Source: a virus. From it: 64,000 bases of DNA. A program made the translations under genes and the position numbers. This document shows, one piece after another, positions 610-21,886 of this stretch. Position 1 is the first letter of the stretch; each line of letters opens with the position of its first letter. Below the pieces are notes generated by a model, which did not search any database, had not been told where the DNA came from, and worked only from the letters and a program-made list of their open reading frames with translations. The stretch spans positions 1-64,000 of the IMG/VR virus record IMGVR_UViG_3300029711_000003. One strand, written 5' to 3'.

Positions 610-939
610 ATGAGAATAATAAATACTGACCCCAAAGTTTGGAAATACTTCAAACATGGGGATATTGTAAGATGCGAGTACATATGGGACAAAAAGTTGT
701 TTGAAGTACACGGTTTTCACGGCAATTGGTATTGTCCTTTGATGACTGTGTATATGGTTGGAAAACCTAAGAATAATGCTAATATGTGCAACTTTGATGT
801 AAGGGAAACAAAGTTAATTACATCACCGCATAGACCATTTAGAAAACTGCCTAAGAAGAATTTGCTGAAGCTAATGTCTAAGGGTAATGTGGAAGCAAAA
901 AGAGAGTTCATAATGAGAGTAAATTCAAAAAGTTTATAA
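610..939 (+). CDS. hypothetical protein
   Basis: ORF track, 109 aa. Abuts the next gene. No motif recognised. Confidence 0.4.
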   Translation: MRIINTDPKVWKYFKHGDIVRCEYIWDKKLFEVHGFHGNWYCPLMTVYMVGKPKNNANMCNFDVRETKLITSPHRPFRKLPKKNLLKLMSKGNVEAKREFIMRVNSKSL

Positions 940-940
940 T

Positions 941-2053
941 ATGTTTGAACATGCAGCATGGTACGACAAACTGCCCGATGAAAGTTTGTCGTTATTTGAG
1001 CCTCATTTGAGGTTGTTCTTTGAAACAATGTATGAGCGTCAGCTTATATGGAAACGGAGATTTATTGACAAAAAGGAAAGACCTTGGACAAGTAATAAGA
1101 TTTTCCAAGAGTCAAAGTTCACCAATGTTTATCGTGAGCTGGATAGGAACAGCCAATGGCAAATTAAGAACATTCTTCTTGATGATGAATTGTCGTTGAA
1201 AAATCTTGTTTGGAAGATGATGGTTTTTCGTTTCTTCAATAATCCTGAAACATTTACATTTGAGCCGAAAGGAAAGAGTATTCAACCCAGTCTTTTTGGA
1301 GCTCAAACAAAATCGGGATTGAAGCAGGCTCAATCAACTTCGGAGTTAATCAGTGCAAAGAAATGGCGCAACGGCATTCCTGATTATGATGAATATGATG
1401 AAGAAGAGTTTAGCCGTTTTATTGCTGGTGTTCGTAGTTCGGGACAAAATCCTTATACAACTGCTTATCTTATCAATTCTCAAGCAACACCTGGTATGCC
1501 GAGAGATTATTGTTACACAAGAGTGGTTATACCTACACTGCATAAGAACATGAATAAACTCATTGCTACGGTGATGTCCGCTAAGAAGCCAGAAGACATT
1601 ATCAGTTATCTTAAAACATTGCCTGCAGTGGCAGACTTTATTGCTCATGAGTTCTATCAGGACTTCACTTACATTCCGAGATATACGGATAGAAAATTTA
1701 TGAAGTTTGACCAAAATGACTTCACCAACGTGGGGCCAGGTGCCAGTATCGGCATACGTCTTATTTACCCAAACTTAAAAACAGTCAGAGAACAAAAACA
1801 AGCTATATATTGGTTGAGAGATTTAGCCGATGACTGGCTCAGTCGGATAAGTCTTGAAAGGGGTGAAGATATGCCGTATCTGTATTGGGATAAAGTAGGA
1901 GGACATTATTTGGTAGATGATGAATGCAACATAACGCTTCATCAAATAGAAATGTGGCTCTGCGAATTTCAGAAGTACTGGAAGATGATAATCGGTGAAG
2001 GCAAACAACGTTCTAAGTTTAGTCCAAGAAGTAAAACAATATTGAAAAGATGA
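941..2053 (+). CDS. putative DNA base hypermodification enzyme (alpha-glutamyl/putrescinyl thymine pyrophosphorylase-like)
   Basis: The N-terminal segment YERQLIWKRRF..KERPWTSNKIFQESKFTNVYRELDRNSQW matches my recollection of the conserved PWT..D.I....[KR]FTNVYRExDR signature of aGPT-Pplase family proteins. The stop overlaps the start of the downstream methyltransferase (ATGA). The family call is from memory and needs an HMM check. Confidence 0.5.
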   Translation: MFEHAAWYDKLPDESLSLFEPHLRLFFETMYERQLIWKRRFIDKKERPWTSNKIFQESKFTNVYRELDRNSQWQIKNILLDDELSLKNLVWKMMVFRFFNNPETFTFEPKGKSIQPSLFGAQTKSGLKQAQSTSELISAKKWRNGIPDYDEYDEEEFSRFIAGVRSSGQNPYTTAYLINSQATPGMPRDYCYTRVVIPTLHKNMNKLIATVMSAKKPEDIISYLKTLPAVADFIAHEFYQDFTYIPRYTDRKFMKFDQNDFTNVGPGASIGIRLIYPNLKTVREQKQAIYWLRDLADDWLSRISLERGEDMPYLYWDKVGGHYLVDDECNITLHQIEMWLCEFQKYWKMIIGEGKQRSKFSPRSKTILKR

Positions 2054-3078
2054 ACAAAGAATTAAAAGATTTTTTTGAGAAGAAAGGATTTGAGGTTGTA
2101 GAAAAGAAAACTACAACCCAAATTCTATTACAAAACCTTCTTGCTTTCAGTGTAAGAGAGAAGAAGGGTGGGTTGTTTGATATTTCAATCAATCTTGTAA
2201 AAGAAACTGAAGAAAAAGAGAAGTTGAGAAGCAGGTCTCAAGGATTTGAAGTCAATTTCAAAGGCACTCCCACATTGTTGGGTGTTTCTTTCGATGACTT
2301 TGAAAAGTTCTGCAAACAAAGCAAGGTCATTGCTCAGGTGAAACGTATTTCGGAGTTCCGAGAAGTACAGAGTGAATTTACTCTTGCAGTAGCAGAGAAA
2401 GACGGAAAGACTTTGAAGTGGCGTTCAAACCTTCCTACGGAGAAGCATATTGTTGATGCCGTGTTCCGTGGTAGCGAGTACACTCACCGTTCAGTTGGAT
2501 TGGGAGGTCTGAATCTAACCAAGAAAGACGTTGTATTGGATTTAGGCGGTAATATCGGAGCGTTCACGTGCGATATTTTTGATAAGGTCAAAAAGGTCAT
2601 TGTATATGAGCCTGAAGATGTGAACTATGAATTTCTATCTACTAATATAGAAGACAACGGAGCAAAGAACGTAATTGCCCACAAACAGGCAGTAGTTGGT
2701 AATGACGATAAAGTCCGTGACTTCTATCTTGGCAAGGCACCGTATTACTACTCATTTTTGGTTAAACATAATCGCAAGAGAGTTCCAGTTGAGTGTGTAA
2801 ATATCAACGATGTTATGAAGAAGTACAAGCCTACCAAAATGAAAGTTGATATTGAGGGTTCAGAATGGGAAGTGCTTATCAATTGTACCGACTTCGGAAG
2901 CGTTGACCAAATTATCTTTGAGTACAACTTTGATATGAACATGGACTTGAAAGAGGATTTCAAGCGTTTCAAGGCTTTGAAAAAACATCTCAAGAAACAT
3001 GGTTTTGACGTTCAGGAAATGGAGCGTGATATGAAGCAAAATTGGAATTTAGTATTTATGGTTCAAAGAACATTGTAG
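2050..3078 (+). CDS. FkbM-family SAM-dependent methyltransferase with ~150-aa N-terminal extension
   Basis: VLDLGGNIGAFTCD (SAM-binding G-loop), VIVYEPEDVNYEFL and KMKVDIEGSEWEVL match the FkbM-type pattern DxGAnxG...EPxP...L...KxDxEGxExxVL. Confidence 0.75.
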   Translation: MNKELKDFFEKKGFEVVEKKTTTQILLQNLLAFSVREKKGGLFDISINLVKETEEKEKLRSRSQGFEVNFKGTPTLLGVSFDDFEKFCKQSKVIAQVKRISEFREVQSEFTLAVAEKDGKTLKWRSNLPTEKHIVDAVFRGSEYTHRSVGLGGLNLTKKDVVLDLGGNIGAFTCDIFDKVKKVIVYEPEDVNYEFLSTNIEDNGAKNVIAHKQAVVGNDDKVRDFYLGKAPYYYSFLVKHNRKRVPVECVNINDVMKKYKPTKMKVDIEGSEWEVLINCTDFGSVDQIIFEYNFDMNMDLKEDFKRFKALKKHLKKHGFDVQEMERDMKQNWNLVFMVQRTL

Positions 3079-3082: not shown

Positions 3083-3415
3083 ATGCCTATTTCTAAGAAA
3101 ATAAAAGACCTGAAAGAGCCGTTGGATGTAGATTTACAGCTGATAGCTACGGAGCTTGATACTTCGGTTAAGAGCATGAAATATCTTTGTGCAGAGCAAA
3201 TGACGGATGCTAACACTTTGGACGCTTTTAACAGGTTGGTAGAGGATATAACTCAAATAAACGGAGTAGAAGTGACTTCATTCGATGATAATACGATTTT
3301 GTATGAATACTTGGATGAAGCCATTGTTATACATTCAGTTTTGGGAGTCATATATATATTGTTTGATAGCATGGTCACTCAGAAGCTGGAAAACAAATTG
3401 GACAGTTATAGATAA
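3083..3415 (+). CDS. hypothetical protein
   Basis: ORF track, 110 aa. Confidence 0.45.
   Translation: MPISKKIKDLKEPLDVDLQLIATELDTSVKSMKYLCAEQMTDANTLDAFNRLVEDITQINGVEVTSFDDNTILYEYLDEAIVIHSVLGVIYILFDSMVTQKLENKLDSYR
3403..3411 (+). promoter_or_regulatory. conserved CAGTTATAG element (candidate phage promoter core)
   Basis: One of seven copies of CAGTTAT[AT][AG]. Lies 28 nt upstream of the ATG at 3439. Confidence 0.35.
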
Positions 3416-6439: not shown

Positions 6440-8323
6440 ATGGCAACAAAGAATTTAGGACAGGTGTCGGGTGTTCATATAGGTAGCACCCCACCGTCAA
6501 ATACGATATTGATTTGGTACGACAGCACACCGAGTCAGTTGAGGCATAAGGTATATGACCCAACGCTGAAACAGTGGGTTGTTCTTGACCAAAACATTAT
6601 TTCTGCAATCACATATTCCGAGCTTACCAATATGGCTAAAAATTCGGGATTGTCGGTTGGAGAGTATTTCCAAATTACAGACCGTAGTAATGCCCTTGCA
6701 TTAGCAATTACTTCTACGAAAGTACAGTATTGCGACGCTTTGGGTGACATTCTGATTGATGACCTTGGAACGAACATACAATATCATGTAACATCTTCCA
6801 ACTTACAGATTGACGATGTTGTCGGGGTATTCGATGAAACCAACCGAAAGCTGGTATTCCAGTTCAACGAGCAAACGCCCGATTTCACCGCTGACGACTA
6901 TGTTCTTGGTAAGGTTCAACGTAACAACATATGGAGCCTTGCCAAGTACAAACTTTCGTCTTTCTTGTCGAAAGTAACGGGCAATAGCATAACGTGGAAC
7001 GGTGGATTTTTCTTCAGCTTTTCGGACGCTCTGAAGAATGTTCTTGATAAGGCTGGTGGGGTAGTTAGCAAAACAACTTATGATAGGGATAAGGAACAAC
7101 TGACCACTTCTATCAACAACGTAGGAAAGGAAAATCAGAATATCATACAGAACGCTCATGATGAGCTGACTGAAGCTACCAAGCCTGATTCATTCTATGG
7201 CACCAAGCTACCATCTATTCCTACTAGTGGTGAAGCTACGGATATAGCAAAAGGAGATACGTTGTTGAGTATTGTATCAAAAATACAAAGATATATCAAT
7301 AAGTTCAAGTATGCTACTGGTATCCGTATTTCTCAAGATTTCACTGATAGGGTGAGTCCGCAATATGTTAATAACAACGACACCGTTGATTCAGCCATAA
7401 GAAAAATTCAATATTGGTTGAAAAATATGGGTAAGGGTGGAAAGCTATCTGAAGATTGGGAGCCGAAAGACTACACCACTACTGTTGAAGATGTAGCGGC
7501 AGGAGATACGTTTGATGATGCATTTGCTAAGGCAGTTGCTAAGTTGAGTCAGATTGGAGATATTACCAACGGTAGAATTCAATCGAAAGCTACTGTTAAT
7601 GGTAGCAAATATACAAGGTGTACCGATTTCAACTTGGCTAATGGTTCTTTGACATTTAATCGTGACGTTTCAGGAAGTGCTAATCAACAGACTGTTCAAC
7701 TGAATAGAAGTAGTGGTTTGTATATCAACAATGCTTCAGGGAAATCAGTTAGAATTTCTGGCGAAGGAGTAAGTGTCAATGCTAACACTAATCAAGGTTT
7801 TCAATTGCCAAACTATGAAGATAGTTGGGGATTGGGAATTTATTATGGAGCTGCTGCCGCTTTGTTTACAGGCGCAGGAGCCTCACTTGGCGGTTACACT
7901 TCGGTTAAGTGTGCTGCTGGTATTTCTGCTATTTGTAGCCGTGGAACATTAGGAAGTGGCGTTGATATTTTTGATGCGTATTTCTCACGTCTTAAAGCAG
8001 GCAGTATTTCTTTTGGTAGGGCAGGCATGCAAGACTCAGATTTGTATATCACAAATGACTGTTCTTTTGTAACATGTACTAATACAGAAGATAGAAATGT
8101 ATATTTGCCCACAACTCCGTTTGACGGTTTAATGGTCATCATCAATCAGGTTAATACTGCTAATGTAGCGGTTCAAGGCAATGGACATAAGATTATCGAT
8201 AACGAAGATGTTGACTATATCAATATTGGAGGAGCAAGAAGAATTGCCGTATTTCTTTATCATGCTAATCTTGCTTCACCTACTGGTTCGGGAGCTTGGT
8301 TGTTTACACGTTGGTCAAGATAA
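6440..8323 (+). CDS. putative fibre / virion-surface protein
   Basis: 627 aa, Gly/Ser/Asn/Thr-rich and beta-like in composition. Followed by a chaperone-like gene. No catalytic motif seen. Confidence 0.4.
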   Translation: MATKNLGQVSGVHIGSTPPSNTILIWYDSTPSQLRHKVYDPTLKQWVVLDQNIISAITYSELTNMAKNSGLSVGEYFQITDRSNALALAITSTKVQYCDALGDILIDDLGTNIQYHVTSSNLQIDDVVGVFDETNRKLVFQFNEQTPDFTADDYVLGKVQRNNIWSLAKYKLSSFLSKVTGNSITWNGGFFFSFSDALKNVLDKAGGVVSKTTYDRDKEQLTTSINNVGKENQNIIQNAHDELTEATKPDSFYGTKLPSIPTSGEATDIAKGDTLLSIVSKIQRYINKFKYATGIRISQDFTDRVSPQYVNNNDTVDSAIRKIQYWLKNMGKGGKLSEDWEPKDYTTTVEDVAAGDTFDDAFAKAVAKLSQIGDITNGRIQSKATVNGSKYTRCTDFNLANGSLTFNRDVSGSANQQTVQLNRSSGLYINNASGKSVRISGEGVSVNANTNQGFQLPNYEDSWGLGIYYGAAAALFTGAGASLGGYTSVKCAAGISAICSRGTLGSGVDIFDAYFSRLKAGSISFGRAGMQDSDLYITNDCSFVTCTNTEDRNVYLPTTPFDGLMVIINQVNTANVAVQGNGHKIIDNEDVDYINIGGARRIAVFLYHANLASPTGSGAWLFTRWSR

Positions 8324-8334
8324 AATTGTAACAT

Positions 8335-8925
8335 ATGAAAGCAAAAATAGTAAGCAAGTATTCAGTATCAGTCATTGACTACGATACGGAAGTCAATAAG
8401 ATTGAGACCATCTTCAATAGCGATATTGTAAAGTATGGAGTAAATGATGACATAATCAACGCCATTCTTGCTAAGAAAGACGATGAAAGGACTATCGAAG
8501 AACTTCAGGCGATTGTAAAACGCAAGGAATTGAACGATTGGAAAGACAGTCAGCTCAAGGAGCTGGATGGATATTTGGAATTTGTTCCTTCGGAGTTCAA
8601 TGGTTATTTGGGCGAATATGAAGCAGCAAAACCTTATTACGTTGAAGAGGATGAAAAGGTGGTTCAAAAATGGGAAATCGTTGAAAACGACAAAACAAAA
8701 ATTTTAGCCAAAATTGACGTATTAAAAGGTGAGCTTGAACAAACGGACTATAAGGTGATAAAATGCTATGAGGCTGCTCTGTCCAGTAGTAGTGAAATGC
8801 CTTATGACGTTAATACTTTGATTTCTGAACGTCAGGCAAAACGTGATGAAATAAATAGTTTGCAAGAGTTGATAACCGAAGAAGTGGTTGAAAAAACGCT
8901 CAAAATAAATCGTTGTTATGTGTAA
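8335..8925 (+). CDS. hypothetical protein (possible fibre assembly chaperone)
   Basis: 196 aa. The C-terminal pattern L..ELEQTDYKVIKCYE......ERQAKRDEIN resembles the W/D..K..E...R..R.EI pattern of phage fibre-assembly proteins. Weak. Confidence 0.3.
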   Translation: MKAKIVSKYSVSVIDYDTEVNKIETIFNSDIVKYGVNDDIINAILAKKDDERTIEELQAIVKRKELNDWKDSQLKELDGYLEFVPSEFNGYLGEYEAAKPYYVEEDEKVVQKWEIVENDKTKILAKIDVLKGELEQTDYKVIKCYEAALSSSSEMPYDVNTLISERQAKRDEINSLQELITEEVVEKTLKINRCYV

Positions 8926-9478
8926 GATAGTTTATTTAACATCTAAGCGTTTCGATAAGCCGTCAAGCGAGTTCAAGAAAGCACTTGCCGATGAGCTACG
9001 CAAGAGAAATGTAGAAGTGGTAACAGATTATTCGTATGACTGGTTAAATCACTTCAGAAAGCATAAGACTTATGGAATTGCCATAGCTTTTGACTTTTAT
9101 AGGGATGGAAAAGAAGGGTGCGGGTTGACGTTGAATAAAAACTGTTCTTACATAAGCAGAGATTTTGCTTACAATCTTTCCAATGTATATGACCTTTTGA
9201 CGCCATCTATACATTGGAGAGATTTTAAGTTTGTAGATTCATACGATACAGAATGGTTTAAGTTTTTCAATAGAATAAGTGCTTCAACAAAAGCAATCTT
9301 CTATCTTTGTACTTTGAACAATCCTTCTGATTGGAATAACTATTCCATAGCAATTGAAGATATAGTAAGACATTTTGCTGATGAGATAGTACGTTGTTTA
9401 CGCTCCAATTATAATGCCGATGACTACAGAAAAAGAGTAAAATTAGCAAAACTAAGGGTTAATAAAGTTAAACAATAA
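8918..9478 (+). CDS. hypothetical protein
   Basis: 186 aa. The order of motifs loosely recalls the Amidase_3 fold, but I could not find the catalytic His/Glu residues. Confidence 0.45.
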   Translation: MCKIVYLTSKRFDKPSSEFKKALADELRKRNVEVVTDYSYDWLNHFRKHKTYGIAIAFDFYRDGKEGCGLTLNKNCSYISRDFAYNLSNVYDLLTPSIHWRDFKFVDSYDTEWFKFFNRISASTKAIFYLCTLNNPSDWNNYSIAIEDIVRHFADEIVRCLRSNYNADDYRKRVKLAKLRVNKVKQ

Positions 9479-9482
9479 AGCT

Positions 9483-9983
9483 ATGGGATGGTTTACTGAT
9501 AATGCGTTTGAGATAATATCATTGTTCTTTGGGACAAGCGGTATAGGATATGCCGTTGTAACACGCATAATGAACAAGAAAAAATATCAGCAGGAATTGT
9601 TACAATCTCAAGCTGATATAGATGCTAAGGAGGATGATTTTTGGAAAAAGAGGTACGATGTTTTACAAGCTGAAGTTGATAATAAAGATAGCTGGTGGAA
9701 GGAAAGGTATGACGCTTTGTATGCCGAATATCAAAATGAACGGAAACTAAGCAATGAAATTGTCAAATCATTCCGCACAGAGTTAAATGAAATGAGAACT
9801 GACTACGAGAAGCAGCGTGAGCTTGAAAAAATGAAATATGATAAGCTCATGGAACAATATCGTAGTTTTGAAGAAGAAAGCAAGAAACGTGAAACAGAGT
9901 ATAAACAACGAATTTCACAACTGGAAAAACTGGTTGAAAGTTACGAAAAAAGGTTGAACAAAGAAGATGACAACACAGAGTAA
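9483..9983 (+). CDS. membrane-anchored coiled-coil protein (i-spanin-like architecture)
   Basis: N-terminal hydrophobic helix FEIISLFFGTSGIGYAVVTRI, then a long charged heptad-like region with the internal repeat WKKRYDVLQAEV / WKERYDALYAEY. Confidence 0.45.
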   Translation: MGWFTDNAFEIISLFFGTSGIGYAVVTRIMNKKKYQQELLQSQADIDAKEDDFWKKRYDVLQAEVDNKDSWWKERYDALYAEYQNERKLSNEIVKSFRTELNEMRTDYEKQRELEKMKYDKLMEQYRSFEEESKKRETEYKQRISQLEKLVESYEKRLNKEDDNTE

Positions 9984-10548
9984 AAACATATTGAAATCCG
10001 TATTGATTTTAGCAATTTGCTTTTCGGTAGGGTTTTTTATAGGTTACTTGGTTTTTAGCAAAGATGAGCCAGCTGTCAGACGTATTGTTGAAATAAAATG
10101 GCAAAAAGGCGAAATGGTAAGAGATACGGTTGACCGTCCAGTTCCTGTTGAAACCATAATTCGTGACAGCATACCAGTTCCTATTCCTACGGATACAGCG
10201 GCATTGTTTGCCGTTTGGAAAGATTATTGCTTGGAGAGAAAATATGCTTTGAATTTTTCTAATGATAGCATAGGAACATTCCAAGTAGATGCGGTTGTGA
10301 ATCAAAACAAGCTCATTTCCGCCACTTCTTTAATTCAGCCTAATATCCGTACAGTTTACGAAAAAGAAGTGATTTACAAAAAAGAAAAGTGGGTTCCATG
10401 GGCAATGATTGGCACTTCGGTAGATTTGAAAACCAATAAGGTACAATTTGGCGTAGATTTGAATCAAAAATACGTTATCGGAGTTTCAGGCATACGCATG
10501 GATAACAGATATAGATATACATTAGATTTTGGTATTAAATTCAAATAA
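9967..10548 (+). CDS. single-pass membrane protein
   Basis: N-terminal TM segment ILKSVLILAICFSVGFFIGYLVF, 193 aa. Confidence 0.45.
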   Translation: MTTQSKNILKSVLILAICFSVGFFIGYLVFSKDEPAVRRIVEIKWQKGEMVRDTVDRPVPVETIIRDSIPVPIPTDTAALFAVWKDYCLERKYALNFSNDSIGTFQVDAVVNQNKLISATSLIQPNIRTVYEKEVIYKKEKWVPWAMIGTSVDLKTNKVQFGVDLNQKYVIGVSGIRMDNRYRYTLDFGIKFK

Positions 10549-10556
10549 TAAACAAT

Positions 10557-11547
10557 ATGGGACAGTTAGATGATATTTTGAAACATCAAAACATGGTGTG
10601 CAATAACATCATGAAATCCTTTGGCGCAGAAACTTCGGAAGACAGTTTGGAAAAATCTTTTGAAGATGAAGTCAATCCGTTTGAAATGGAAGCATATAAA
10701 TCCGAGCTAACCAAAGCAGAACTTGATGAGTTTGAAAAAGCTAAACATCAAGACGGAGATATGCACCCCCAACGGTAAATGGGTTTGGCGTCAATCCGCC
10801 AACGGAGGCAAGGGTGACTGGCGTGTAGCGAAACCAGGTGGTAGCAAAGCTACTGCTGGGAGCGCAGCTACTGCAAATAATAAAACAAACGCTATGGCTA
10901 AGACTTCACCCAGTAAACTTTCCGATAAGGAGAAATTCGCTAATATGGATATCAAAGAAGCAAAAAAGAAACTTGTTGGTAAAAATTTAACATTTAAGAA
11001 CTATTGGAGTGATGGAAAGGGCGGAAGTGTAGATGCTACTGGTAAGATTACAAATGTACAGTTGTATGGAAGAAATAAACAACCTTTAGTTTCAGTAGAG
11101 TTTGAAAATGGAGATAGAGCTACAGTTTCTCTTAAACAAATTGATGAAGGTAAAGCAGTAGGATATGATTTGTCATTATCCGATAGTTCATCTGCTTCTA
11201 AACAAACTGGCGATAGCAAATCAGAAAAATCTTCATCTGACAAGAAGAAAGATGCAGAAATTCCAAATGCGGCTCAAGTAGGTATTAGCAATATTATCAA
11301 AAGGACTTTTGGTAAAAATCTGAGTTCACTTAAATTCAAGGGGAAGAAAGTAATTATACAGGTTGATGGTAAAACACATGGAAGTGGTTACAGTTCTTAT
11401 GTTAAATCTTATTACAAAGATGGTAAGATGACAAGCAGAGAGCTTGAAAATTCATATGATAAATCAAGCATGGATACCGTTGAAAAGAAGTTAGGAACTT
11501 TGATTAAATATGTAAATCAAATTGAATTGATAGAGAACTATGACTAA
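10557..11547 (+). CDS. hypothetical protein requiring a +1 frameshift at CCC_C (10767-10771); 0-frame product is 73 aa
   Basis: Frame 0 reads ...GDMHPQR* (10557..10778). Frame +1 from 10771 reads NGKWVWRQSANGGKGDWR... to 11547. The paralogue at 15996 reads GDMHPNGKWVW uninterrupted, with 4 C where this gene has 5. Confidence 0.55.
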
Positions 11548-11725
11548 GAAGGAACATAAGCATAGTCATTTCATTCCTTCTCCTTTTCCAACGGTTACAG
11601 AGTATGAAAATGCTTTCATAAAGTTTTGGAATAAGAATACAGCAGAGGCAGTTGCAGAAGTCTTAAAATATATGGCACGAGCAACTGCCTCTGCTATAAA
11701 AGAAAATAGGGAGGAAAAGAAATGA
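11540..11725 (+). CDS. hypothetical protein
   Basis: 61 aa. Overlaps both neighbours by a few nt. Confidence 0.4.
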   Translation: MTKKEHKHSHFIPSPFPTVTEYENAFIKFWNKNTAEAVAEVLKYMARATASAIKENREEKK

Positions 11726-13749
11726 TATTTACAGCATCACAAATAAGCGATATGCTGTCAATTCTCAAAAAGTATGAATTGATATTTATTGCTAATCAAC
11801 TTGGTACTGATTTTCTAACAGCTGCTGATAAAGCTATTCTATTAGCTGCTGGCATAGACGTTGACCAGTTTAAGAACGCTCAAGGCATTATAGAGCATGC
11901 TTTTCTTTTCGGTATATTAGCGGAAGCCATAGGGGATGCGAGGGCAAAGAAAATGAATTACAAGCAATTTCAGAAGTTCCTGAAGAGCAAGAATTTCATA
12001 CCGCTAACAGAAGAGGAAGAACTGGCATTGCAGAATGTTAAGCAAAGAGCGTACACCGATATAACAAATTTGAGCAACCGTATGGCTGGAGCTTTCCGAA
12101 ACGTAGTATTAAAAAACAATCAAGAGCAACTTCTACTGGCTCAAAAGATAGTACGTGATAAAGCTGTAACGGCAATTGAGCTGCGTCAAGGAGCTACGAA
12201 GTTAGCACAAGAACTTGCTGACGCTGCTCAGAGTTGGGACACAGATTGGTTGCGTGTTGCTTATTACATATTACATGAAGCATACAACACAGGTCGTTCT
12301 CAGAGTATTTTGAAGAATAATGGAGCGGATGCCGAAGTATATTTTGATGTATTTCCAAAGGCGTGTCATAAGTGTAAGGAATTGTATCTTGAAGACCCAG
12401 ATGATGAAAATAGCACACCAAAGATTTTCAAGCTCAAAGACCTTATAGCAAATGGTAATAATATCGGACGTAAACAAGCTGATTGGAAAGCTACGATTGG
12501 ACCAATACATCCATATTGTTTCAATAGTCCTTCAGTTAAGATTTATACATCAAAGGGAGTTAAGAATATTTCTGATATTAAAGTAGGGGATTTGGTATTG
12601 ACTCATAGGGGGAGATATAGAAAGGTAACTAATATAATGGTTAGAGGATATGATTGTGAAATAGAAAATATATATGACCTTTTCTACAGTTTTCCAGGTA
12701 TTGGATATGTCAAAGCAAAAAAGTGTAGAAAGGTAAGGGCAATAACTGGAAACCATCCTGTGCTAACTAAAAGAGGTTGGGTAACGGTTGAAAATTTAAC
12801 CATTGGAGATAAAATATATATACCAGCATTAGTTTGTTCTAAATGCGGTAAAGTTTATCCTATAAATGCTTATTATGATGATAAATATAGCCGTAAATAT
12901 GATAATGATTTATGTTATGATTGTTTAAGAACAAAAATAGCAGAAGAACAGTGGAAGGATGAAAATTTTCATAAGTATATGAGTATCAAAATTACTGAAC
13001 AGATGAAAAAAAGATATGAAAACATGTCTTATGAAGATAGATTGAGAATTAGTAGCAAAGCAAGAAAGGCTATTGCGAAAAAATATCCCAATGGACATCC
13101 ATGGATGAAGGAAGCTATAATAAAAGCAAACAAAACTAATGGTAAGAAAAAAACTTTCATAGAAAGGAAACTATTGTATTTATGTGAAAAATTAGGAGTG
13201 GAAACTGTAACTGGTATGTGTTTGAGGAATAAAGATGGCAAGTTCAGGAATAACGTCACTTGTTATTTTCCTGATATATTTATTCCAAAATTAGGAATTG
13301 TTCTTGAAGCCGATGGAATTCAATGGCATAAGGACAAGGAATATGACTCAAACAGAGATAAAGACATTAAACAATTTTTCGGATATGATACATTTAGATT
13401 TTCAGAAGAAGATATTGTAAATAATGGCGATAAGGTATTTGATGAATTAAATAGAATTTTTAATAATCATGAAGGTAATTATAGAATGATTGAAGTTACT
13501 CTTCATGCTATAAGGCGTAGAATGAGAAGTTCAAGACATTGCAATTTGTTATATAATTTTTCTGTTGAAGAAGATGAAAGTTATATAGCAGATGGCGTTG
13601 TTGTGCATAATTGCCGTTGTATATTGAATCATAAGCCAGAAGGATTTGCTTGGGATGAAAATCTAAGAGCGTTCACCAAGCCTATTAAGAAGGTTTCAAA
13701 TCACCCGAAATTAAAGAACGTGAAGCTGAACATCAAAGTTACTAAGTAA
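11722..13749 (+). CDS. minor head (morphogenesis) protein, MuF / SPP1 gp7 family, intein-containing precursor
   Basis: The extein carries ...FPKACHKCKELY...IGPIHPY + CRCILNH. This reconstitutes the C..C / HPxCRC signature that closes MuF-family domains. Position is downstream of portal. Confidence 0.8.
   Translation: MIFTASQISDMLSILKKYELIFIANQLGTDFLTAADKAILLAAGIDVDQFKNAQGIIEHAFLFGILAEAIGDARAKKMNYKQFQKFLKSKNFIPLTEEEELALQNVKQRAYTDITNLSNRMAGAFRNVVLKNNQEQLLLAQKIVRDKAVTAIELRQGATKLAQELADAAQSWDTDWLRVAYYILHEAYNTGRSQSILKNNGADAEVYFDVFPKACHKCKELYLEDPDDENSTPKIFKLKDLIANGNNIGRKQADWKATIGPIHPYCFNSPSVKIYTSKGVKNISDIKVGDLVLTHRGRYRKVTNIMVRGYDCEIENIYDLFYSFPGIGYVKAKKCRKVRAITGNHPVLTKRGWVTVENLTIGDKIYIPALVCSKCGKVYPINAYYDDKYSRKYDNDLCYDCLRTKIAEEQWKDENFHKYMSIKITEQMKKRYENMSYEDRLRISSKARKAIAKKYPNGHPWMKEAIIKANKTNGKKKTFIERKLLYLCEKLGVETVTGMCLRNKDGKFRNNVTCYFPDIFIPKLGIVLEADGIQWHKDKEYDSNRDKDIKQFFGYDTFRFSEEDIVNNGDKVFDELNRIFNNHEGNYRMIEVTLHAIRRRMRSSRHCNLLYNFSVEEDESYIADGVVVHNCRCILNHKPEGFAWDENLRAFTKPIKKVSNHPKLKNVKLNIKVTK
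12517..13611 (+). mobile_element. intein (365 aa, residues 266-630) with nested Vsr/DUF559-like endonuclease
   Basis: Cys1 (CFNSPSVKIY), block B TxxH (ITGNHPVL), terminal VVVHN followed by the +1 Cys. The interior has a zinc ribbon (CSKCGK...CYDC) and FPDIFIPKLGIVLEADGIQWHKDKEYDSNRDKDIKQFFGYDTFRF. The segment is visibly AT-richer than the exteins. Confidence 0.8.
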
Positions 13750-13760
13750 AAAGAATTGTA

Positions 13761-14438
13761 ATGAAAACTGAAAAATGTTTAATTGTACAGCCTCATTCCG
13801 ATGACGCCTTGTTTTGTTGTTCTCATATACTATTTCAGCCTCAATACGAAGTTCAAGTGCTGACCGTAGAGAATGACCCAAAGCGTATTGCGGAAGATGA
13901 GAAATTGTATGATTTCCTCAATATTCCTTTCTTTCACCTTACAGCCGATTTTCACGATGAGAGCTATTATGGTTTCAATAAGGAATACAAAGAAGTAACT
14001 GTGGAAGCAACGTATAAATATCTACGTGGGTACTTCGGTAGCGATACGATGAATGAAATTGAGGAAATGATTGTAAGTTGGTTAAGGAAGTTTTTGAAAA
14101 ATAATAAGGGGTACAAAGTGATTGCTCCTTGGGGTGTAGGACATCCATTCCATTTGTTTGTTCGTGAAACTATTCAGAGCGCAATAAGCTATATGGAGTA
14201 TTATCGTGAATTTCCGCATTCGTATAAAAGACGTTCTCAAACGCAAGTTAATAAACAATTGGAAGAATATACGTTGAAACGGTCAGTACCAGTTGATGAG
14301 TTTCACGAAGTGAAGTGGAAACTTGCTTCAAAGTTTTACAGGTCGCAGTCGGGATTGCAGTTTTACGAGCAAAACTATATAAAGAAAATGTTGCCCGAAG
14401 AAATTTATATAAGAAACCAAGATGAATTGCCGTTTTGA
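13761..14438 (+). CDS. PIG-L / LmbE-family N-acetylglucosaminyl deacetylase-like protein
   Basis: N-terminal LIVQPHSDDALF matches the (A/P)HPDDE zinc-ligand motif. The later GVGHPFHLFV matches the H-x-x-H region of the family. Confidence 0.6.
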   Translation: MKTEKCLIVQPHSDDALFCCSHILFQPQYEVQVLTVENDPKRIAEDEKLYDFLNIPFFHLTADFHDESYYGFNKEYKEVTVEATYKYLRGYFGSDTMNEIEEMIVSWLRKFLKNNKGYKVIAPWGVGHPFHLFVRETIQSAISYMEYYREFPHSYKRRSQTQVNKQLEEYTLKRSVPVDEFHEVKWKLASKFYRSQSGLQFYEQNYIKKMLPEEIYIRNQDELPF

Positions 14439-14441
14439 TTT

Positions 14442-15893
14442 ATGAAGATATTCATTGCAGATTTTCAGATAGCAAAATATGGTGGCATTGTCGAGTACGT
14501 TGCCAGCATGCTTAAAGCATTCCGAGATTTAGGACATGAAGTGGATGTAGCTCAAATGACACCTGCATCTACTACTCAGAGTGCTTATAACAAGAAAGTA
14601 AAAGAGTTTGAGAGCGGAGAACATCAACAAAAGATAAAGTTCCATTCTCAGGCTGGAGGTTATGAGAAAGATGAGGTAACAGGTTATTGGCGCAATAACT
14701 ATTATGGCTATTTCTTGCCTCCAAGTAACCGTATCGGAGTATATGAAAAGAACGCTGTGGAGAGGTGGAAAGAATTGGTAAGGGATGCTGATATCATTCT
14801 TTGGAATTTCATGCCAACTAAAAGTTCCGCTTGGAATAAGAAAGGCGTTGAATTTGACTTTTGGTGGAAGTTCTTTGATTTACCTTCTTCTATTAAGCAA
14901 GTATTTTTATGCCATGATGCTTATTTCAACGTCAGAGCAAGTAATATATCTGCTCTGAAAGATAAGATATTGTTTATAGCTTGCGCTCACCTTGCAGCGT
15001 ATCAGTGTTGTTCCGAAATAGGGATACCAAGAACGTTGTTATTGAATCCACGTTATTTGCCCGATGGGGCACGTATGCCAATAAGACCCATGCAAAAGAG
15101 AACGGATGACTTTTTTGCTGCACATATGTTTAAGTCTATGAAACATATGGAAGAGTTGATTGCCGCTGTTCCGTATATTCAAAAGGGGAGTGAAGAAAGA
15201 TATTCGGTTAAGATTGCTGGAACTGGCATCGAATATAATTACATGACCAGTGAGACAAAGACAAAGAGTAATTACATGTGCACTCTGAAGCGTGACCCTA
15301 ACTTGCCTAAGAAGATGGATGGCAAAATTTCTCTTTGGGATAGAGCCGTTAAGTTTGGTATGGAGTATATGGGTCAGATGTCGGGCGGTGATGTCATTAA
15401 GACTTTGAAAAATACTAAGTTTGCTATTGACCCATCTTGGGCTGAACATTATGCCAATTATTGTCGCACTCACATAAACGGTTTTATTATCGAAGCTATG
15501 CTGAGCGGTGCTTATCCAGTTTTGCGTGATTATAGGGGATTGGTTAAGAACGGAGATAAGGAAATATATGACCCATTGTTTGAAAACGTCAGAGCAATCA
15601 TTATTCCATGGAATGCTACTCCGAAAGAATTTGCTGAATCATTGAAGAAAGCTATGCAGATGTCACCTGCTAAATTTCTCCGAGATACAAAGGCTAATTT
15701 TGAGCTTGTTTATGAATTATTCAACGCTAAGAAGAATGCTGAAGAAATAGTAAGACTTTGCCGTGGTGGTAAAAAGTTAATCAAAAAAGAGCTTGAAAAA
15801 GGCAAAGATTCAGAAAATGTTAAGAAAATAACAAAAGACATTATGGAGGACTTCTATCATATAGAGCTTCCAATTGAGTGGGAAACAGAATAA
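14442..15893 (+). CDS. GT-B fold glycosyltransferase (GT4-like)
   Basis: The N-terminus MKIF...AKYGGIVEYVASMLKAFRDLGHEVDV is the typical GT4 start. The C-terminal NGFIIEAMLSGAYPVL matches the E-x7-E / EAMA.G.PV region. Confidence 0.65.
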   Translation: MKIFIADFQIAKYGGIVEYVASMLKAFRDLGHEVDVAQMTPASTTQSAYNKKVKEFESGEHQQKIKFHSQAGGYEKDEVTGYWRNNYYGYFLPPSNRIGVYEKNAVERWKELVRDADIILWNFMPTKSSAWNKKGVEFDFWWKFFDLPSSIKQVFLCHDAYFNVRASNISALKDKILFIACAHLAAYQCCSEIGIPRTLLLNPRYLPDGARMPIRPMQKRTDDFFAAHMFKSMKHMEELIAAVPYIQKGSEERYSVKIAGTGIEYNYMTSETKTKSNYMCTLKRDPNLPKKMDGKISLWDRAVKFGMEYMGQMSGGDVIKTLKNTKFAIDPSWAEHYANYCRTHINGFIIEAMLSGAYPVLRDYRGLVKNGDKEIYDPLFENVRAIIIPWNATPKEFAESLKKAMQMSPAKFLRDTKANFELVYELFNAKKNAEEIVRLCRGGKKLIKKELEKGKDSENVKKITKDIMEDFYHIELPIEWETE

Positions 15894-15895
15894 AG

Positions 15896-15904
15896 CAGTT
15901 ATTA
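15896..15904 (+). promoter_or_regulatory. conserved CAGTTATTA element (candidate phage promoter core)
   Basis: Starts 3 nt after the glycosyltransferase stop codon and 52 nt upstream of the ATG at 15948. Confidence 0.4.
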
Positions 15905-15947
15905 TCCTACCATAATATGATTGTGAATAAATTAAACATAACGTGTT

Positions 15948-17675
15948 ATGGTAAAAAATAACGATGTAATTGAAAAGGCGGTGCAGCGTAAAGTAGGCGA
16001 TATGCACCCCAACGGCAAGTGGGTATGGACAGAATACAAGCCAGGAAAATTCGACTGGCGTCCACCTAAGAAAAACGCTGCTGGCGCAGCAGGCGGTAGT
16101 TCTTCGGGGAGTTCTGATACTGGTAAAAAGACAACCGCTACAACGTCAAAGACGACATCTGCTAAAAGCGGTGCGAAGCCTATGGACTCACAGAAGTTGG
16201 TTCAATGGGCTGCTACTACTTCGGATGACAATCTGTTAAAAGTTGCTAATAGCAAGAATGGTAATGCGCAGATGCGTATGATTGCTTACAAACAACTTGA
16301 AAGCAGAGGGTTTGATATGTCAAAGGTTGATACTTCGGGAACGCTGGGTCAGCTTATGAAGATGACTAAGCAAGGAAGTTCAAAGCAAACATCCACTTCT
16401 TCAGGTGATGACGATACGGTAAGCGGAGCAGCCGCAGGAGCATCTGTCGATATAGACGATGATTCAGATGAAGGTGGAGTTGATGGCAGTCAAATCACTG
16501 AGAAGTGGTATCTCAACAAGAACGATGACCGTGTTAAGAAACGCTTCAATCTCAAAACCAAGGAAGGTCGTATCAAGTATGACCAATTTGTTTACAAGGA
16601 GAAAAAGAAAGAGCCTGATTACAAAGACCCAGTTGAAGTCATTCAGGACTTGAATGAACAATACTTGGAGTTTTTGGACAATCCTGAACAGCGTTTCATG
16701 ATTTCCGCAGGTGGAGCTGGTATCGGTAAGTCATATGGCTTTAACAAGATTGCCGAGCTTTTGAACATGAAACCTTTTGAAGAGGGTGACCAGCCAGGTG
16801 ATGATGACTACGATATTTTTGAAGCTCCTGACGTAAATTCAGGCAAGCAATTACTTGGTATTCTCAAGGCTCACAACGGTAAGATTATCGTGTTCGATGA
16901 CAACGACAAGGTATTGCGTAGAGCGGATTGCGCATCAGTAATGAAGAAAGCAACTGCTACTACTGGTAAGCGTATTGTTGGTGACCCTGATGACATTAAG
17001 AGCAACTTTGAGTTTACAGGTCGTATTATGATTATGACCAATAAGGATTTGAACTCACTTGCCGAGAATGAAGATACCAAAGCAATCATTAGCCGTGCTA
17101 TGATGGTATCGGAGATTTACCTCACCGTGCCTGAGCAGATAGAGGTTATGAAGAGCCGTTATCAGGACTATGAATTCAAACAAGCTCCGAGATTGGACGA
17201 TGAAGCAGCCGATAAGAAAGAGCGTGATGAAATCATGTCTTTGATTGAGAAAAATCAAAAGAACATTGACCCTGCTCAGTTCACTACACGTACTTTCCAA
17301 GAAATTCTTATCAATAAACGTAAGGTTGACAACGCCAACGAAAAGCGTAACAATCCTGCTTTTGCTGCCATGATTGGTTCTAAGCAGAAAGACTGGAAGA
17401 AGGTCGCTTTGGACGTTCTGACCAAAGCTGCTATGAATGACTTTGAAGGTGACGCTGTTTCGGATGAACTTGTCAAAGCAGAAGATTTGCTTCTCAATAA
17501 AGCGTATGCTCATGATGCGGACGATGGCGTGAACTATCACGTTGATGACCCAGAGGATATGAACGTTGAGAAAGCGGAAAATCTTTTGTTGAATGATGAG
17601 GAAGAGGATATGGCGAAAGCCAATAGCAACGAAATGAGTATATCAGAAGCCGAAGAAATATTGCTGGGGTTATGA
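15948..17675 (+). CDS. P-loop (AAA-type) ATPase with N-terminal KWVW..DWR motif and S/T/G-rich linker
   Basis: GDMHPNGKWVWTEYKPGKFDWR at residues 17-38. Walker A GGAGIGKS. Walker B KIIVFDDND. IMIMTNKD resembles the AAA sensor strand. The acidic C-terminus has three AE(D/N/E)(L/I)LL motifs. Confidence 0.6.
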   Translation: MVKNNDVIEKAVQRKVGDMHPNGKWVWTEYKPGKFDWRPPKKNAAGAAGGSSSGSSDTGKKTTATTSKTTSAKSGAKPMDSQKLVQWAATTSDDNLLKVANSKNGNAQMRMIAYKQLESRGFDMSKVDTSGTLGQLMKMTKQGSSKQTSTSSGDDDTVSGAAAGASVDIDDDSDEGGVDGSQITEKWYLNKNDDRVKKRFNLKTKEGRIKYDQFVYKEKKKEPDYKDPVEVIQDLNEQYLEFLDNPEQRFMISAGGAGIGKSYGFNKIAELLNMKPFEEGDQPGDDDYDIFEAPDVNSGKQLLGILKAHNGKIIVFDDNDKVLRRADCASVMKKATATTGKRIVGDPDDIKSNFEFTGRIMIMTNKDLNSLAENEDTKAIISRAMMVSEIYLTVPEQIEVMKSRYQDYEFKQAPRLDDEAADKKERDEIMSLIEKNQKNIDPAQFTTRTFQEILINKRKVDNANEKRNNPAFAAMIGSKQKDWKKVALDVLTKAAMNDFEGDAVSDELVKAEDLLLNKAYAHDADDGVNYHVDDPEDMNVEKAENLLLNDEEEDMAKANSNEMSISEAEEILLGL

Positions 17676-20047: not shown

Positions 20048-20051
20048 AGTT

Positions 20052-20417
20052 ATGAACAGAGAAAGAAAACTATCTGTTATGGCGGGCAGAGCATCTAAGG
20101 TAGTTGCTTTGAAAAAACCGTCCAACTTGATTCCATTCAGGGGCAAATTTCCTTTGTTGGAAGCATATCAGGTGAAGCCGTATCTTGAAGCTGTACAATC
20201 AACTGATAATTTGGAAGATTTATCTGAAGAGTTTCAGAAGATAACTGAAAAGGGCAACCGCATAGTTGTTCTTGAAGATGGCTTCAAACAATATCTATCG
20301 GGATTTGGTATAAGTCCGAGCGATTTTGACAATTTAAGCAACAGCGAGAAGTCCGATAAGTTGATAAATTGGATGGCTCATGATTGTATTGATTTTTCTC
20401 AACTAACAATTAAGTGA
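20052..20417 (+). CDS. hypothetical protein
   Basis: ORF track, 121 aa. Confidence 0.45.
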   Translation: MNRERKLSVMAGRASKVVALKKPSNLIPFRGKFPLLEAYQVKPYLEAVQSTDNLEDLSEEFQKITEKGNRIVVLEDGFKQYLSGFGISPSDFDNLSNSEKSDKLINWMAHDCIDFSQLTIK

Positions 20418-20418
20418 T

Positions 20419-21859: not shown

Positions 21860-21874
21860 CAATTTTATTGTTGA

Positions 21875-21883: not shown

Positions 21884-21886
21884 AGA

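Follow-up and report, generated by a model that had tools for sequence, protein, structure and literature searches.

Thymidine hypermodifications shield phage DNA from host nucleases. To our knowledge, a single scheme has so far explained them, in which a hydroxymethylase, a 5-hydroxymethyl-dU (5-hmdU) DNA kinase, a clade 2 transferase and tailoring enzymes act in turn. A clade 1 paralog has accompanied these systems since it was first predicted, and we know of no activity ever shown for a clade 1 protein. The clade 1 domain is PF18723, earlier named aGPT-Pplase clade 1 and now HMUDK_hel; Pfam at present describes it as a helical add-on to the kinase. Clade 2 (PF18724, "ADDT") is the sole clade with shown amino-acid:DNA transferase activity, and the clade 1 protein of phage M6, gp55, is not needed for glycinylation in vitro (PMC8989533). 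A Cys and a Glu are both essential in clade 2 (PMC8989533; PMC11472151), and in characterised phages the clade 1 protein is sometimes fused to the kinase or encoded next to it (PMC5889632).

Here we analyse a 64,000-nucleotide stretch of phage DNA (the window; all coordinates refer to its plus strand) in which a clade 1 gene without a kinase, together with an optional methyltransferase gene, points to a DNA chemistry that has not yet been described. The clade 1 gene, ORF1 (941..2053, 370 aa), encodes a stand-alone member of PF18723, which it matched at E 1.6e-47 in a Pfam profile search (162.7 bits; curated gathering cut-off 25) with most of the domain covered; it also matched phrog_2396 at E 9.8e-47 over residues 20-361. 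PF18723 is likewise matched by M6 gp55 and Det7 gp36, whereas M6 gp51 matches PF18724 instead. ORF1 gave no match to PF18724 at E <= 1, against E 1.4e-46 for M6 gp51, and the PDB sequence search returned no match between gp46 of phage PaMx11 and ORF1. The first-pass annotation, made from the letters alone, had called ORF1 aGPT-Pplase-like and suggested a scan with the profiles of that family; the scan places it in clade 1 (PF18723) instead of clade 2 (PF18724).

The block on which that annotation relied, RPWTSNKIFQESKFTNVYRELDRNSQW (1079..1159, residues 47-73), is a genuine N-terminal hallmark of clade 1, and the family is indeed among the genes that make up the thymidine-hypermodification systems of M6, ViI, PhiW-14 and SP10. 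Its residues P48, W49, T50, F60, N62, R65, E66 and D68 are kept in at least 90% of 46 aligned sequences (alignment A4) drawn from three PF18723 subgroups with a mutual identity of only 24-31%, which makes them nearly invariant across the subgroups, and the pattern PWT...N[IV].RE.DR recurs in 114 of 120 close relatives of ORF1. Invariant in the same alignment are R97, N100, D241, G265-P266-G267, E337, C341, E342 and K345. The C-terminal motif I-E337-M-W-L-C341-E342-F (1946..1969) holds a candidate catalytic Glu/Cys pair, and the motif is found in 119 of the 120 relatives. All motifs of the family (PWT...N.RE.D, G-P-G and E-x3-C-E-x2-K-Y) are present in ORF1, and the Glu, Cys, Glu, Lys, Asp and Gly-Pro-Gly positions, unchanged across 24-31% identity, have the appearance of an active site. 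The AF2 model of ORF1 (pLDDT 85.7) is mostly helical, with a helix-hairpin-helix-like fold. In BFVD the SP10 "kinase" fusion ranked first (E 2e-12, TMq 0.66), and "helical domain" proteins, those of PhiW-14 and phiRSL1 among them, were matched as well; the best match in the PDB, PaMx11 gp46 (8Z2N), was weak (prob 0.51, TM 0.33/0.40).

Comparison with described proteins places ORF1 among the clade 1 members and sets its genome apart from theirs. M6 gp55, ViI gp160 (of the Det7 gp36 type), PhiW-14 gp72 and the C-terminal domain of SP10 gp186 belong to the Pfam family of ORF1 and share with it a full-length family match, the PWT...N.RE.D, GPG and E-x3-C-E motifs and the predicted fold, although identity is only 24-31%. 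A dUMP hydroxymethylase is encoded both in their phages and here. In all the characterised phages, however, the clade 1 protein stands alongside a 5-hmdU DNA kinase and a clade 2 transferase, neither of which is found in the ORF1 genome. The clade 2 proteins M6 gp51, ViI gp247 and PhiW-14 gp109, to which PaMx11 gp46/PUGT (PDB 8Z2M, 8Z2N) and SH-Ab 15599 Pplase2 can be added, are placed by the literature in one superfamily with ORF1. Common to them and ORF1 is a G-P-[FW] motif ~95-110 residues upstream of Glu-x3-Cys; the clade 2 invariants E243 and C247 have the E-x3-C spacing and C-terminal position of E337 and C341 in ORF1, an equivalence drawn by inspection only; hhalign between the clades was not significant. 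Against this, clade 2 structures and the ORF1 model reach a TM-score of only 0.33-0.46, the N-terminal DxDPxY and RxERRHxR motifs of clade 2 do not occur in ORF1, and clade 2 requires kinase-made 5-phosphomethyl-dU while the ORF1 genome has no detectable kinase. Clade 2 chemistry would be harder without a phosphate leaving group, which counts against a kinase-free step.

Matching contigs allowed the entire genome of ~100 kb to be pieced together. The ThyA-family gene and the HD-domain gene reported earlier for the window are both present. The former (58354..59553, 399 aa; PF00303, E 4e-26) encodes an enzyme of the dUMP hydroxymethylase type: among phage proteins it is closest to the hydroxymethylases of SPO1 (gp29), SP8, SP10 and M6 (gp58), with E 1e-41 to 1e-45, compared with only ~1e-19 for PDB entries that are true thymidylate synthases, and both the catalytic Cys, in IPCNDM, and the Asn in GLPTNIF are retained. 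At least 13 long contigs carry it together with ORF1, and it is, by homology, the putative source of 5-hmdUMP. Because a SPO1/M6-type dUMP hydroxymethylase is encoded, phages of this lineage probably replace thymine with 5-hydroxymethyluracil and build their DNA with 5-hmdU. The second gene encodes a YfbR-like HD phosphohydrolase (63125..63766, 213 aa; PF12917, E 3e-11; phrog_7076 "dATP triphosphohydrolase", E 1e-11), a candidate enzyme for keeping dTMP or dNTPs out of the pool, and M6 pairs a ThyA-like and an HD gene in the same way (gp58/gp59). A dUTPase is also encoded. The SPO1/SP8-type 5-hmdU phages have the hydroxymethylases (gp29) most like the one described here, and SPO1-like portals are ~40% identical to the portal of the lineage. 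Beyond the SPO1/SP8-type set, with the dUTPase and the nucleotidase-type HD enzyme, our lineage has the clade 1 gene and variable tailoring genes; SPO1 was not among the Bacillus phage matches to PF18723 listed; just six Bacillus records matched, the one listed being phage YungSlug.

Across the same ~100-kb genome, no 5-hmdU DNA kinase (PF18748), ADDT or Nmad5 was detected in a search that combined Pfam calls on the reference contig, Pfam on gap ORFs of a relative 99-100% identical, phmmer with M6 references and a Walker A scan. The genome also held no small P-loop kinase, no tailoring gene for a PLP decarboxylase, rSAM isomerase, FAD lyase or acetyltransferase, and no TET/JBP dioxygenase was seen in it. 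The earlier suggestion that the kinase merely lies outside the window therefore falls, PF18748 being found nowhere in the genome. With no detectable kinase, ADDT or Nmad5, the canonical M6/ViI-type pathway cannot run as described in this phage.

The stop codon of ORF1 overlaps the start of ORF2 (2050..3078, 342 aa), whose product is a class I SAM methyltransferase of the FkbM family. Both FkbM profiles exceed their curated cut-offs (PF05050, E 6e-8, 33.4 bits against 22.7; TIGR01444, E 4.9e-18, 65.9 bits against 37.7), which bears out the original assignment, and phrog_8156 matches at E 6e-20. PF05050 and TIGR01444 cover about residues 160-320, with an invariant SAM-binding loop, D164-x-G166-x-N168-x-G170. 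The N-terminal ~150 residues (2050..2499, aa 1-150), which had been called uncharacterised, are indeed unmatched by either profile; they form an alpha/beta domain private to the lineage, with 13 representatives among 1.84 billion proteins. The nearest phage FkbM homologs outside the lineage align to the catalytic half of ORF2 only, at ~30% identity. The AF2 model of ORF2 (pLDDT 94, pTM 0.88) matched only generic Rossmann methyltransferases in the PDB (TM 0.3-0.39). FkbM-family members known to us O-methylate polyketides, small molecules and sugars, and not DNA or other nucleic acids. At the junction, ...AAAAG ATG A AC..., the TGA of ORF1 and the ATG of ORF2 share 4 nt (ATGA, 2050..2053). The overlap reported in the first-pass annotation is therefore real, and it is not special for this genome, in which a 4-nt overlap is seen at 8 of 65 junctions and an overlap of some kind at 21.

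The two genes differ in their conservation. ORF1 belongs to the core of the lineage: each of the 80 related loci carries it, always in the same position and at 56-94% identity, and directly upstream of it in 76 of the 80 lies a homolog (35-97% identical) of ORF0 (610..939, 109 aa), which ends one base from the ORF1 start. ORF2 is an accessory gene, found next to the clade 1 gene in 20 of 77 relatives (IMG/VR loci) and absent from the other 57, which keep ORF1. In relatives lacking it, such as L140, L149, L151 and L160, ORF1 is directly followed by ORF3 (3083..3415, 110 aa), a conserved small protein at which the cargo slot of ORF2 ends on the downstream side; neither ORF0 nor ORF3 matched a Pfam or PHROG family. 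In divergent phages, too, ORF2 lies beside the clade 1 gene, with ORF2 46%, 57% and 52% identical, ORF1 down to 50% and the portal down to 54%. Among six divergent ORF2 homologs sampled, three lie in a different gene block. There ORF2 either is flanked by an rSAM-SPASM gene and a fusion of a PIG-L-like domain with TAGT or adjoins homologs of the window's genes at 13761..14438 and 14442..15893. Conversely, the slot after the clade 1 gene holds a stand-alone TAGT in a relative with a 76%-identical ORF1 and an rSAM-SPASM gene in another. An ordinary Dam methyltransferase fills the slot in L193, and elsewhere small genes of unrelated kinds occupy it; the slot may simply be an insertion hotspot, as the Dam gene in one relative suggests, which would tell against the tailoring role proposed below for ORF2. 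An obligate methyltransferase partner of ORF1 does not fit the absence of ORF2 from 57 of the 77 loci and its other block in three of the six homologs. Hundreds of related contigs belong to the lineage, whose ~100-kb phages are common, uncultured and known from metagenomes only; to judge by record names, they apparently come from the human gut.

What defines the TAGT family (PF20691) is that it is associated with TET/JBP DNA base-modifying enzymes. In relatives of this phage, the FkbM gene adjoins TAGT and rSAM-SPASM, or TAGT adjoins the clade 1 gene; in comparison, the genome of the window has only sub-threshold glycosyltransferase and deacetylase signals, with no TAGT domain or confident glycosyltransferase detected. 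The sugar enzymes claimed earlier for the window hold up only weakly. The product of 13761..14438 (225 aa), possibly PIG-L/LmbE-like, is 37-39% identical to residues 1-221 of the 507-509-aa PF20691 proteins of L328 and L329, that is, to the PIG-L-like N-terminal half of these TAGT fusions, and its homolog in L326 scores under the cut-off against PIG-L (E 2e-4). The adjacent gene, 14442..15893 (483 aa), sits where the TAGT domain sits in L328 and L329, and carries a sub-threshold N-terminal signal of GT4 type (Glyco_transf_4, E 9e-4, 19.7 bits against 28.5). Searches of the PDB and NCBIfam supported neither assignment, both of which are weak. Here a pre-replicative route of ThyA type would supply the hydroxymethyl group. 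Studies of phage DNA glycosylation clusters, whose glycosyltransferases are associated with TET/JBP or ThyA, report methyltransferases in the vicinity of the glycosyltransferases, as well as O-methyltransferases and sugar-modifying enzymes in 5mYOX-associated pathways (bioRxiv 10.1101/2023.12.21.572611; PMC13229309).

We propose, with confidence that is evenly balanced, that ORF1 belongs to a kinase-independent module modifying 5-hmU DNA in which the FkbM enzyme of ORF2 is an interchangeable tailoring component. ORF1 would flip 5-hmU, or a derivative, out of replicated DNA and act on the base through Glu337 and Cys341, by analogy with the clade 2 transferases. This step would run without a 5-hmdU DNA kinase, and is proposed because the genome has neither the kinase nor a clade 2 enzyme. 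ORF2 may then methylate the resulting base, for example at the 5-hydroxymethyl oxygen or on an attached sugar or other substituent, as one of several swappable tailoring genes, others of which are the TAGT glycosyltransferase and the radical-SAM/SPASM enzyme. We infer both the catalytic activity of ORF1 and the substrate of ORF2. The core idea of the first-pass annotation, that a modification derived from thymidine undergoes methylation, is plausible, and gains support because the FkbM gene recurrently neighbours the clade 1 gene, TAGT and radical SAM. We found no description in the literature of a thymidine hypermodification pathway with an FkbM partner, in agreement with the first-pass annotation, which knew of none with a methyltransferase.

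Two other readings of the locus carry some weight. ORF2 could be unrelated cargo in an insertion hotspot, with a non-DNA target for its methylation, for instance a small molecule or a glycan on the surface of virion or host, and with the overlap between the genes reflecting only tight packing; we regard this as possible but rather unlikely. It accords with the 57 of 77 loci that have ORF1 and lack ORF2, the Dam methyltransferase of L193 and the unrelated small genes in the slot elsewhere, the different block around half of the six homologs sampled, the frequency of 4-nt overlaps (8 of 65 junctions) and the generic fold matches of ORF2. It does not account well for a clade 1 pairing that recurs at 50% (ORF1), 52% (ORF2) and 54% (portal) identity with differing surrounding genes, for the TAGT and rSAM-SPASM genes in the alternative neighbourhood of ORF2 and again in the slot beside the clade 1 gene, or for an N-terminal domain confined to the lineage. 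ORF1, in turn, might be no enzyme at all: a helical DNA-binding module that recognises 5-hmU DNA, serves as a kinase-targeting partner in other phages, in line with its Pfam name, and here protects, marks or handles hmU DNA near packaging. The fusion of clade 1 to a P-loop kinase in SP10 gp186 (PMC5889632, Table 3), its position next to the kinase in M6, the dispensability of M6 gp55 for catalysis in vitro (PMC8989533) and the location of the ORF1 gene between replication genes and the portal gene all agree with such a role. We nonetheless consider it unlikely, since the unvarying Glu, Cys, Glu, Lys, Asp and Gly-Pro-Gly positions resemble an active site, a lineage without any kinase conserves ORF1 in its core, and tailoring-type enzymes cluster beside it.

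The remaining alternatives fare far worse. That ORF1 acts as a transferase on kinase-activated 5-hmdU, with a kinase outside the window and methylation to follow, has its superfamily, its E-x3-C motif and the hydroxymethylase-type ThyA in its favour, but PF18748, PF18724 and small P-loop kinases are all absent from the ~100-kb genome and ORF1 is clade 1 where the active clade is clade 2; we hold it to be very improbable, and on the established gene content the canonical pathway is essentially refuted. Some database labels would make ORF1 a terminase small subunit, an idea that deserves almost no credence. It draws on a match to phrog_800 ("terminase small subunit", E 1.8e-8), on Klebsiella phage homologs, some of which are so labelled, and on the nearby portal gene, yet ORF1 aligns only to the C-terminal part of that profile (293-474 of 511), its PF18723 match is far stronger and TerL is ~9 kb distant. 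M6 gp54 bears the same label yet matches PF18748, and is the demonstrated 5-hmdU DNA kinase (PMC8989533), so the label is erroneous in the M6-type cluster.

The preferred reading, a kinase-independent module, has a more specific form, in which the clade 1 enzyme acts directly on 5-hmdU DNA without a kinase and the FkbM enzyme methylates the product where ORF2 is present, yielding an undescribed thymidine hypermodification with TAGT and radical-SAM variants in sublineages. ORF2 products would then be, for example, 5-methoxymethyl-dU or a methylated glycosyl- or otherwise substituted hmU. Taken as a whole, this chain is tentative and on balance improbable.

A lineage with the hydroxymethylase and without the kinase or clade 2 enzyme offers a minimal natural context for clade 1 function, and its optional FkbM, TAGT and radical-SAM genes point to a set of related, chemically distinct DNA bases. 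These phages bear on phage-host arms races in the gut and on sequencing bias in virome studies, as DNA modifications can confer resistance to enzymes and change the nanopore signal, and they may provide new DNA-modifying enzymes as tools. If direct, kinase-free action is true, it would define the long-missing function of aGPT-Pplase clade 1 and reveal an undescribed thymidine hypermodification in an abundant phage lineage, apparently of the human gut.

On its sequence, the protein encoded by ORF1 (941..2053, + strand, 370 aa) is a clade-1 alpha-glutamyl/putrescinyl-thymine pyrophosphorylase (aGPT-Pplase), and not a member of the clade with demonstrated activity. A Pfam scan returned a single strong match, PF18723 ("HMUDK_hel, 5-hmdU DNA kinase helical domain", E 1.6e-47), and no other family at E <= 1. 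To interpret this name, the reference proteins of phage M6 were scanned in the same way. M6 gp55, known in the literature as aGPT-Pplase1 (PMC9476957; PMC5889632 Table 3), matches PF18723 (8e-56), as does the ViI-like homolog Det7 gp36, while the proven glycine:DNA transferase gp51 matches PF18724 ("ADDT") and gp54 matches PF18748, the kinase. It is the PF18723 match common to ORF1, M6 gp55, and Det7 gp36 that places ORF1 in clade 1. Activity has been demonstrated for clade 2 only, as an amino-acid or polyamine:DNA transferase acting on kinase-made 5-phosphomethyl-dU (PMC8989533, PMC11472151, PMC13458397), and M6 gp55 is dispensable in vitro (PMC8989533). The first-pass annotation, which had called ORF1 an aGPT-Pplase, was therefore right about the superfamily, as the Pfam match confirms, but not about the active clade. 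In PHROGs, residues 20-361 fall into phrog_2396 (unknown function); a "terminase small subunit" label was rejected.

The AlphaFold model of ORF1 (pLDDT 85.7) resembles SP10 gp186, a fusion of kinase and helical domain (E 2e-12, TMq 0.66), and further "helical domain" proteins, among them one of PhiW-14. The best match among solved structures, a weak one, is clade-2 PaMx11 gp46 (8Z2N, prob 0.51, TM 0.33/0.40), with HhH glycosylases ranking next at non-significant scores; PDB sequence searches, with the single sequence and with a profile, found nothing. When lineage relatives were aligned with ViI-type and M6-type proteins (groups 24-31% identical to ORF1), residues R97, N100, A175, P184, F233, A235, D241, G265-P266-G267, and G271 were invariant, together with E337, C341, E342, K345, and G354 towards the C-terminus. 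The block at residues 47-73 (RPWTSNKIFQESKFTNVYRELDRNSQW), initially recognised as the family hallmark, is nearly invariant in this alignment. The C-terminal motif I-E-M-W-L-C-E-F is found in 119 of 120 close relatives, and the clade-2 alignment has an invariant E243-T-x-x-C247 at the same C-terminal position, about 95 residues past G-P-W, versus about 110 past G-P-F in clade 1. The clade-2 Cys and Glu are essential, with the Cys attacking pyrimidine C6 (PMC8989533, PMC11472151). The E-x3-C likeness between ORF1 and the clade-2 transferases is suggestive; however, hhalign gave no significant result for clade 1 with either M6 gp51 or a seven-sequence clade-2 alignment, matching the GPF/GPW region alone, so the proposed equivalence of the two motifs is one made by inspection.

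Supply of a hydroxymethylated substrate is suggested by a ThyA homolog (58354..59553, 399 aa) that is closest to the dUMP hydroxymethylases SPO1 gp29, SP8, SP10, and M6 gp58 (E 1e-41 to 1e-45), compared with about 1e-19 for true thymidylate synthases in the PDB. SPO1, SP8, SP10, and M6 are known 5-hmdU phages. The catalytic Cys is retained, as is the uracil-type Asn, in agreement with the earlier description of a divergent ThyA-family enzyme with uracil-type specificity. At least 13 long IMG/VR contigs carry both this homolog and ORF1, and eight of them have no ORF2. Given this similarity, the retained residues, and the co-occurrence, the phage DNA likely contains 5-hmdU. The order ThyA homolog, DnaE, HD enzyme echoes the gp58/gp59 arrangement of M6 and ties modified-nucleotide production to the replicase; the end of the ThyA gene overlaps the start of DnaE by 4 nt (59550..59553).

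The exact ORF1 protein was found on ~100.5-kb metagenome contigs, apparently from the human gut, with coordinates that fit a circular genome, and hundreds of relatives are carried on contigs of 90-125 kb. Four loci of a reference contig encoding the exact protein, complemented by two loci that overlap on an IMG/VR contig of 99-100% identity, covered the whole genome. Its Pfam-level content includes a dUTPase/DCD-type protein, ferritin, 5'-3' exonuclease, DnaB, primase, the ThyA homolog, DnaE, a YfbR-like HD enzyme, RecA, SbcCD, UvrD, HU, a DnaQ-like exonuclease, and TerL. Neither the PF18748 kinase, nor PF18724 ADDT, nor Nmad5 appears in the Pfam-level annotation of this ~100-kb genome, phmmer searches across it with M6 kinase, ADDT, Nmad5, PLP, and rSAM proteins gave no match, and credible Walker A motifs are confined to DnaB, UvrD, TerL, and RecA. 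Since the whole genome was covered, the 5-hmdU DNA kinase, which had been noted as possibly lying beyond the window, is undetectable in the genome rather than merely off-window.

Several other features of these genomes were recorded. TerL of the reference contig (L002 1..999) carries a Hom_end/LAGLIDADG intein (927 aa), and an intein-less TerL of 575 aa is encoded by the 99-100% identical relative (L007/L054 merged segment 19492..21219). A 928-aa protein (47707..50493) weakly matches Mtd_N, the major tropism determinant of diversity-generating retroelements, and the Pfam calls include no reverse transcriptase. Megablast of window positions 1-8000 against deposited phages revealed no close relative. 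The cultured 103-kb Chryseobacterium phage MA9V-3 (PV245944.1; L220-L222) is a distant relative (portal 40%, DnaE 34% identical) and was rejected as a model, as it has neither ORF1 nor ORF2 and a different ThyA. It carries the 7-deazaguanine genes folE and queE in a genome with no hydroxymethylase-type ThyA or clade-1 gene, and related phages thus seem to use different DNA-modification kits.

ORF2 (2050..3078, + strand, 342 aa) lies, like ORF1, exactly where the first-pass annotation had placed it. At the junction (...AAAAG-ATG-A-AC...) the TGA stop of ORF1 shares four bases with the ATG of ORF2, as described. Genes of the window are tightly packed, on the + strand throughout except for one small ORF, and 8 of 65 junctions show an identical 4-nt overlap; the overlap by itself is therefore no evidence of a functional link, and we rejected the argument for coupling made from it. 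In 76 of 80 related loci ORF1 is directly preceded by ORF0 (610..939, 109 aa, no family match; one base from the ORF1 start), and the two proteins may be functional partners.

The product of ORF2 exceeds the FkbM family cut-offs, upholding its identification as a methyltransferase of this type, and its DxGxNxG SAM-binding loop is invariant. A confident two-domain structure is predicted (pLDDT 94), for which fold searches retrieved generic class I methyltransferases only (RumA/RlmCD, TYW2, fibrillarin; TM 0.3-0.39), so that the fold is silent on substrate. The N-terminal 150 residues are confined to the lineage, with 13 representatives and none from elsewhere among 1.84 billion proteins. A large protein collection contains 125 relatives of ORF2 and 609 of ORF1. 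Recent horizontal acquisition of ORF2 was rejected on composition (GC 0.381 vs 0.378 for the window).

Among 80 IMG/VR loci with an ORF1 relative, every locus that reaches far enough has ORF0-ORF1 upstream of the portal gene. Of the 77 loci usable for this purpose, only 20 contain ORF2; relatives with 76-84% identical ORF1 pass directly from ORF1 to ORF3, and the slot after ORF1 is occupied by an rSAM-SPASM enzyme and a 252-aa protein in one related locus (L186) and by a D12 Dam methyltransferase in another (L193). ORF2 is thus an accessory gene. Ordinary DNA methyltransferases (N6_N4_Mtase, D12 Dam) occur near the clade-1 gene at L330 3038..3826, L332 906..1640, and L193 7374..8207, L330 additionally encoding a 716-aa HAD-family hydrolase. 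The 252-aa protein (L186 1947..2702), which has no Pfam match, recurs as homologs of 41-44% identity about 5 kb upstream of ORF1 in a sublineage with 57% identical ORF1 (L197-L212).

Sampling of six deeply divergent, full-length ORF2 homologs revealed two recurrent neighbourhoods. In three (P0223, P0199, P0209) ORF2 adjoins the clade-1 gene, at identities of 46%, 57%, and 52% for ORF2, 68%, 56%, and 50% for ORF1, and down to 54% for the portal, with the 4-nt overlap kept in two. The other three lie in a block equivalent to window positions 11.7-17.7 kb. Two of these are flanked by an rSAM-SPASM enzyme and a 507-509-aa protein, whose N-terminal half is homologous to 13761..14438 and whose C-terminal half is a TAGT glycosyltransferase domain (PF20691, E 4e-12); the third adjoins homologs of 13761..14438 and 14442..15893. 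A stand-alone TAGT fills the post-clade-1 slot in a relative with 76% identical ORF1. Through these alternating adjacencies the clade-1 gene, FkbM, TAGT, and rSAM-SPASM are linked within one phage lineage. What defines the TAGT family is its occurrence with DNA base-modifying TET/JBP enzymes. Published work reports phage DNA glycosyltransferases beside ThyA-type or dioxygenase genes, accompanied by further sugar-modifying enzymes (bioRxiv 10.1101/2023.12.21.572611), and O-methyltransferases in dioxygenase-associated pathways (PMC13229309).

With the head protease and major head protein beginning at 21.9 kb, the 6.4-21.9 kb region is an accessory block between portal and head genes. Its roughly 15 kb (~6440..21900) are mostly unannotated; the equivalent block of relatives harbours rSAM-SPASM, FkbM, and TAGT. 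The sugar enzymes initially reported in the window correspond to a sub-threshold GT4 signal (14442..15893) and an indirect PIG-L-like link (13761..14438), neither supported by PDB or NCBIfam searches, and both are treated as leads rather than findings; no TAGT domain is present in the window's genome. A 675-aa gene (11722..13749) harbours an intein that includes a DUF559-type homing endonuclease, its intein-less counterpart in L328 and L326 measuring about 300 aa. Within 20419..21859 a homing-endonuclease-like gene (20826..21533, phrog_314) separates GH108 lysozyme and PG_binding_3 genes, a possible case of an endolysin divided by a mobile element.

Directly observed in these genomes are the family assignments, the gene content, and the patterns of neighbourhood; the reading they best support is a kinase-independent module modifying 5-hmU DNA, each chemical step of which we infer. 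The hydroxymethylase would provide 5-hmdU ahead of replication, ORF1 as the core clade-1 protein would act on the base in DNA, probably via Cys341 and Glu337, and variable tailoring genes, here the FkbM methyltransferase, would diversify the product. The canonical hypermodification pathway originally proposed, in which the kinase would be encoded off-window, is all but excluded, both kinase and ADDT being undetected in the whole genome. ORF2 might instead be unrelated cargo in an insertion hotspot, a less likely reading, for which its patchy presence speaks and against which its recurrence next to divergent clade-1 genes. Slightly less probable still is that ORF1 serves as a non-catalytic module binding hmU-DNA, which the in vitro dispensability of its M6 counterpart favours and its invariant residues speak against.

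Both protein families and thymidine hypermodification are already known, and our literature search found no FkbM partner or methylated 5-hmU derivative described for phage DNA. New here are the conserved core status of clade 1 with neither kinase nor clade 2, its association with an FkbM methyltransferase bearing a private N-terminal domain, and the exchange of the FkbM gene for TAGT and rSAM genes within an abundant, apparently gut-associated phage lineage. The lineage offers a minimal natural context for testing clade-1 function.
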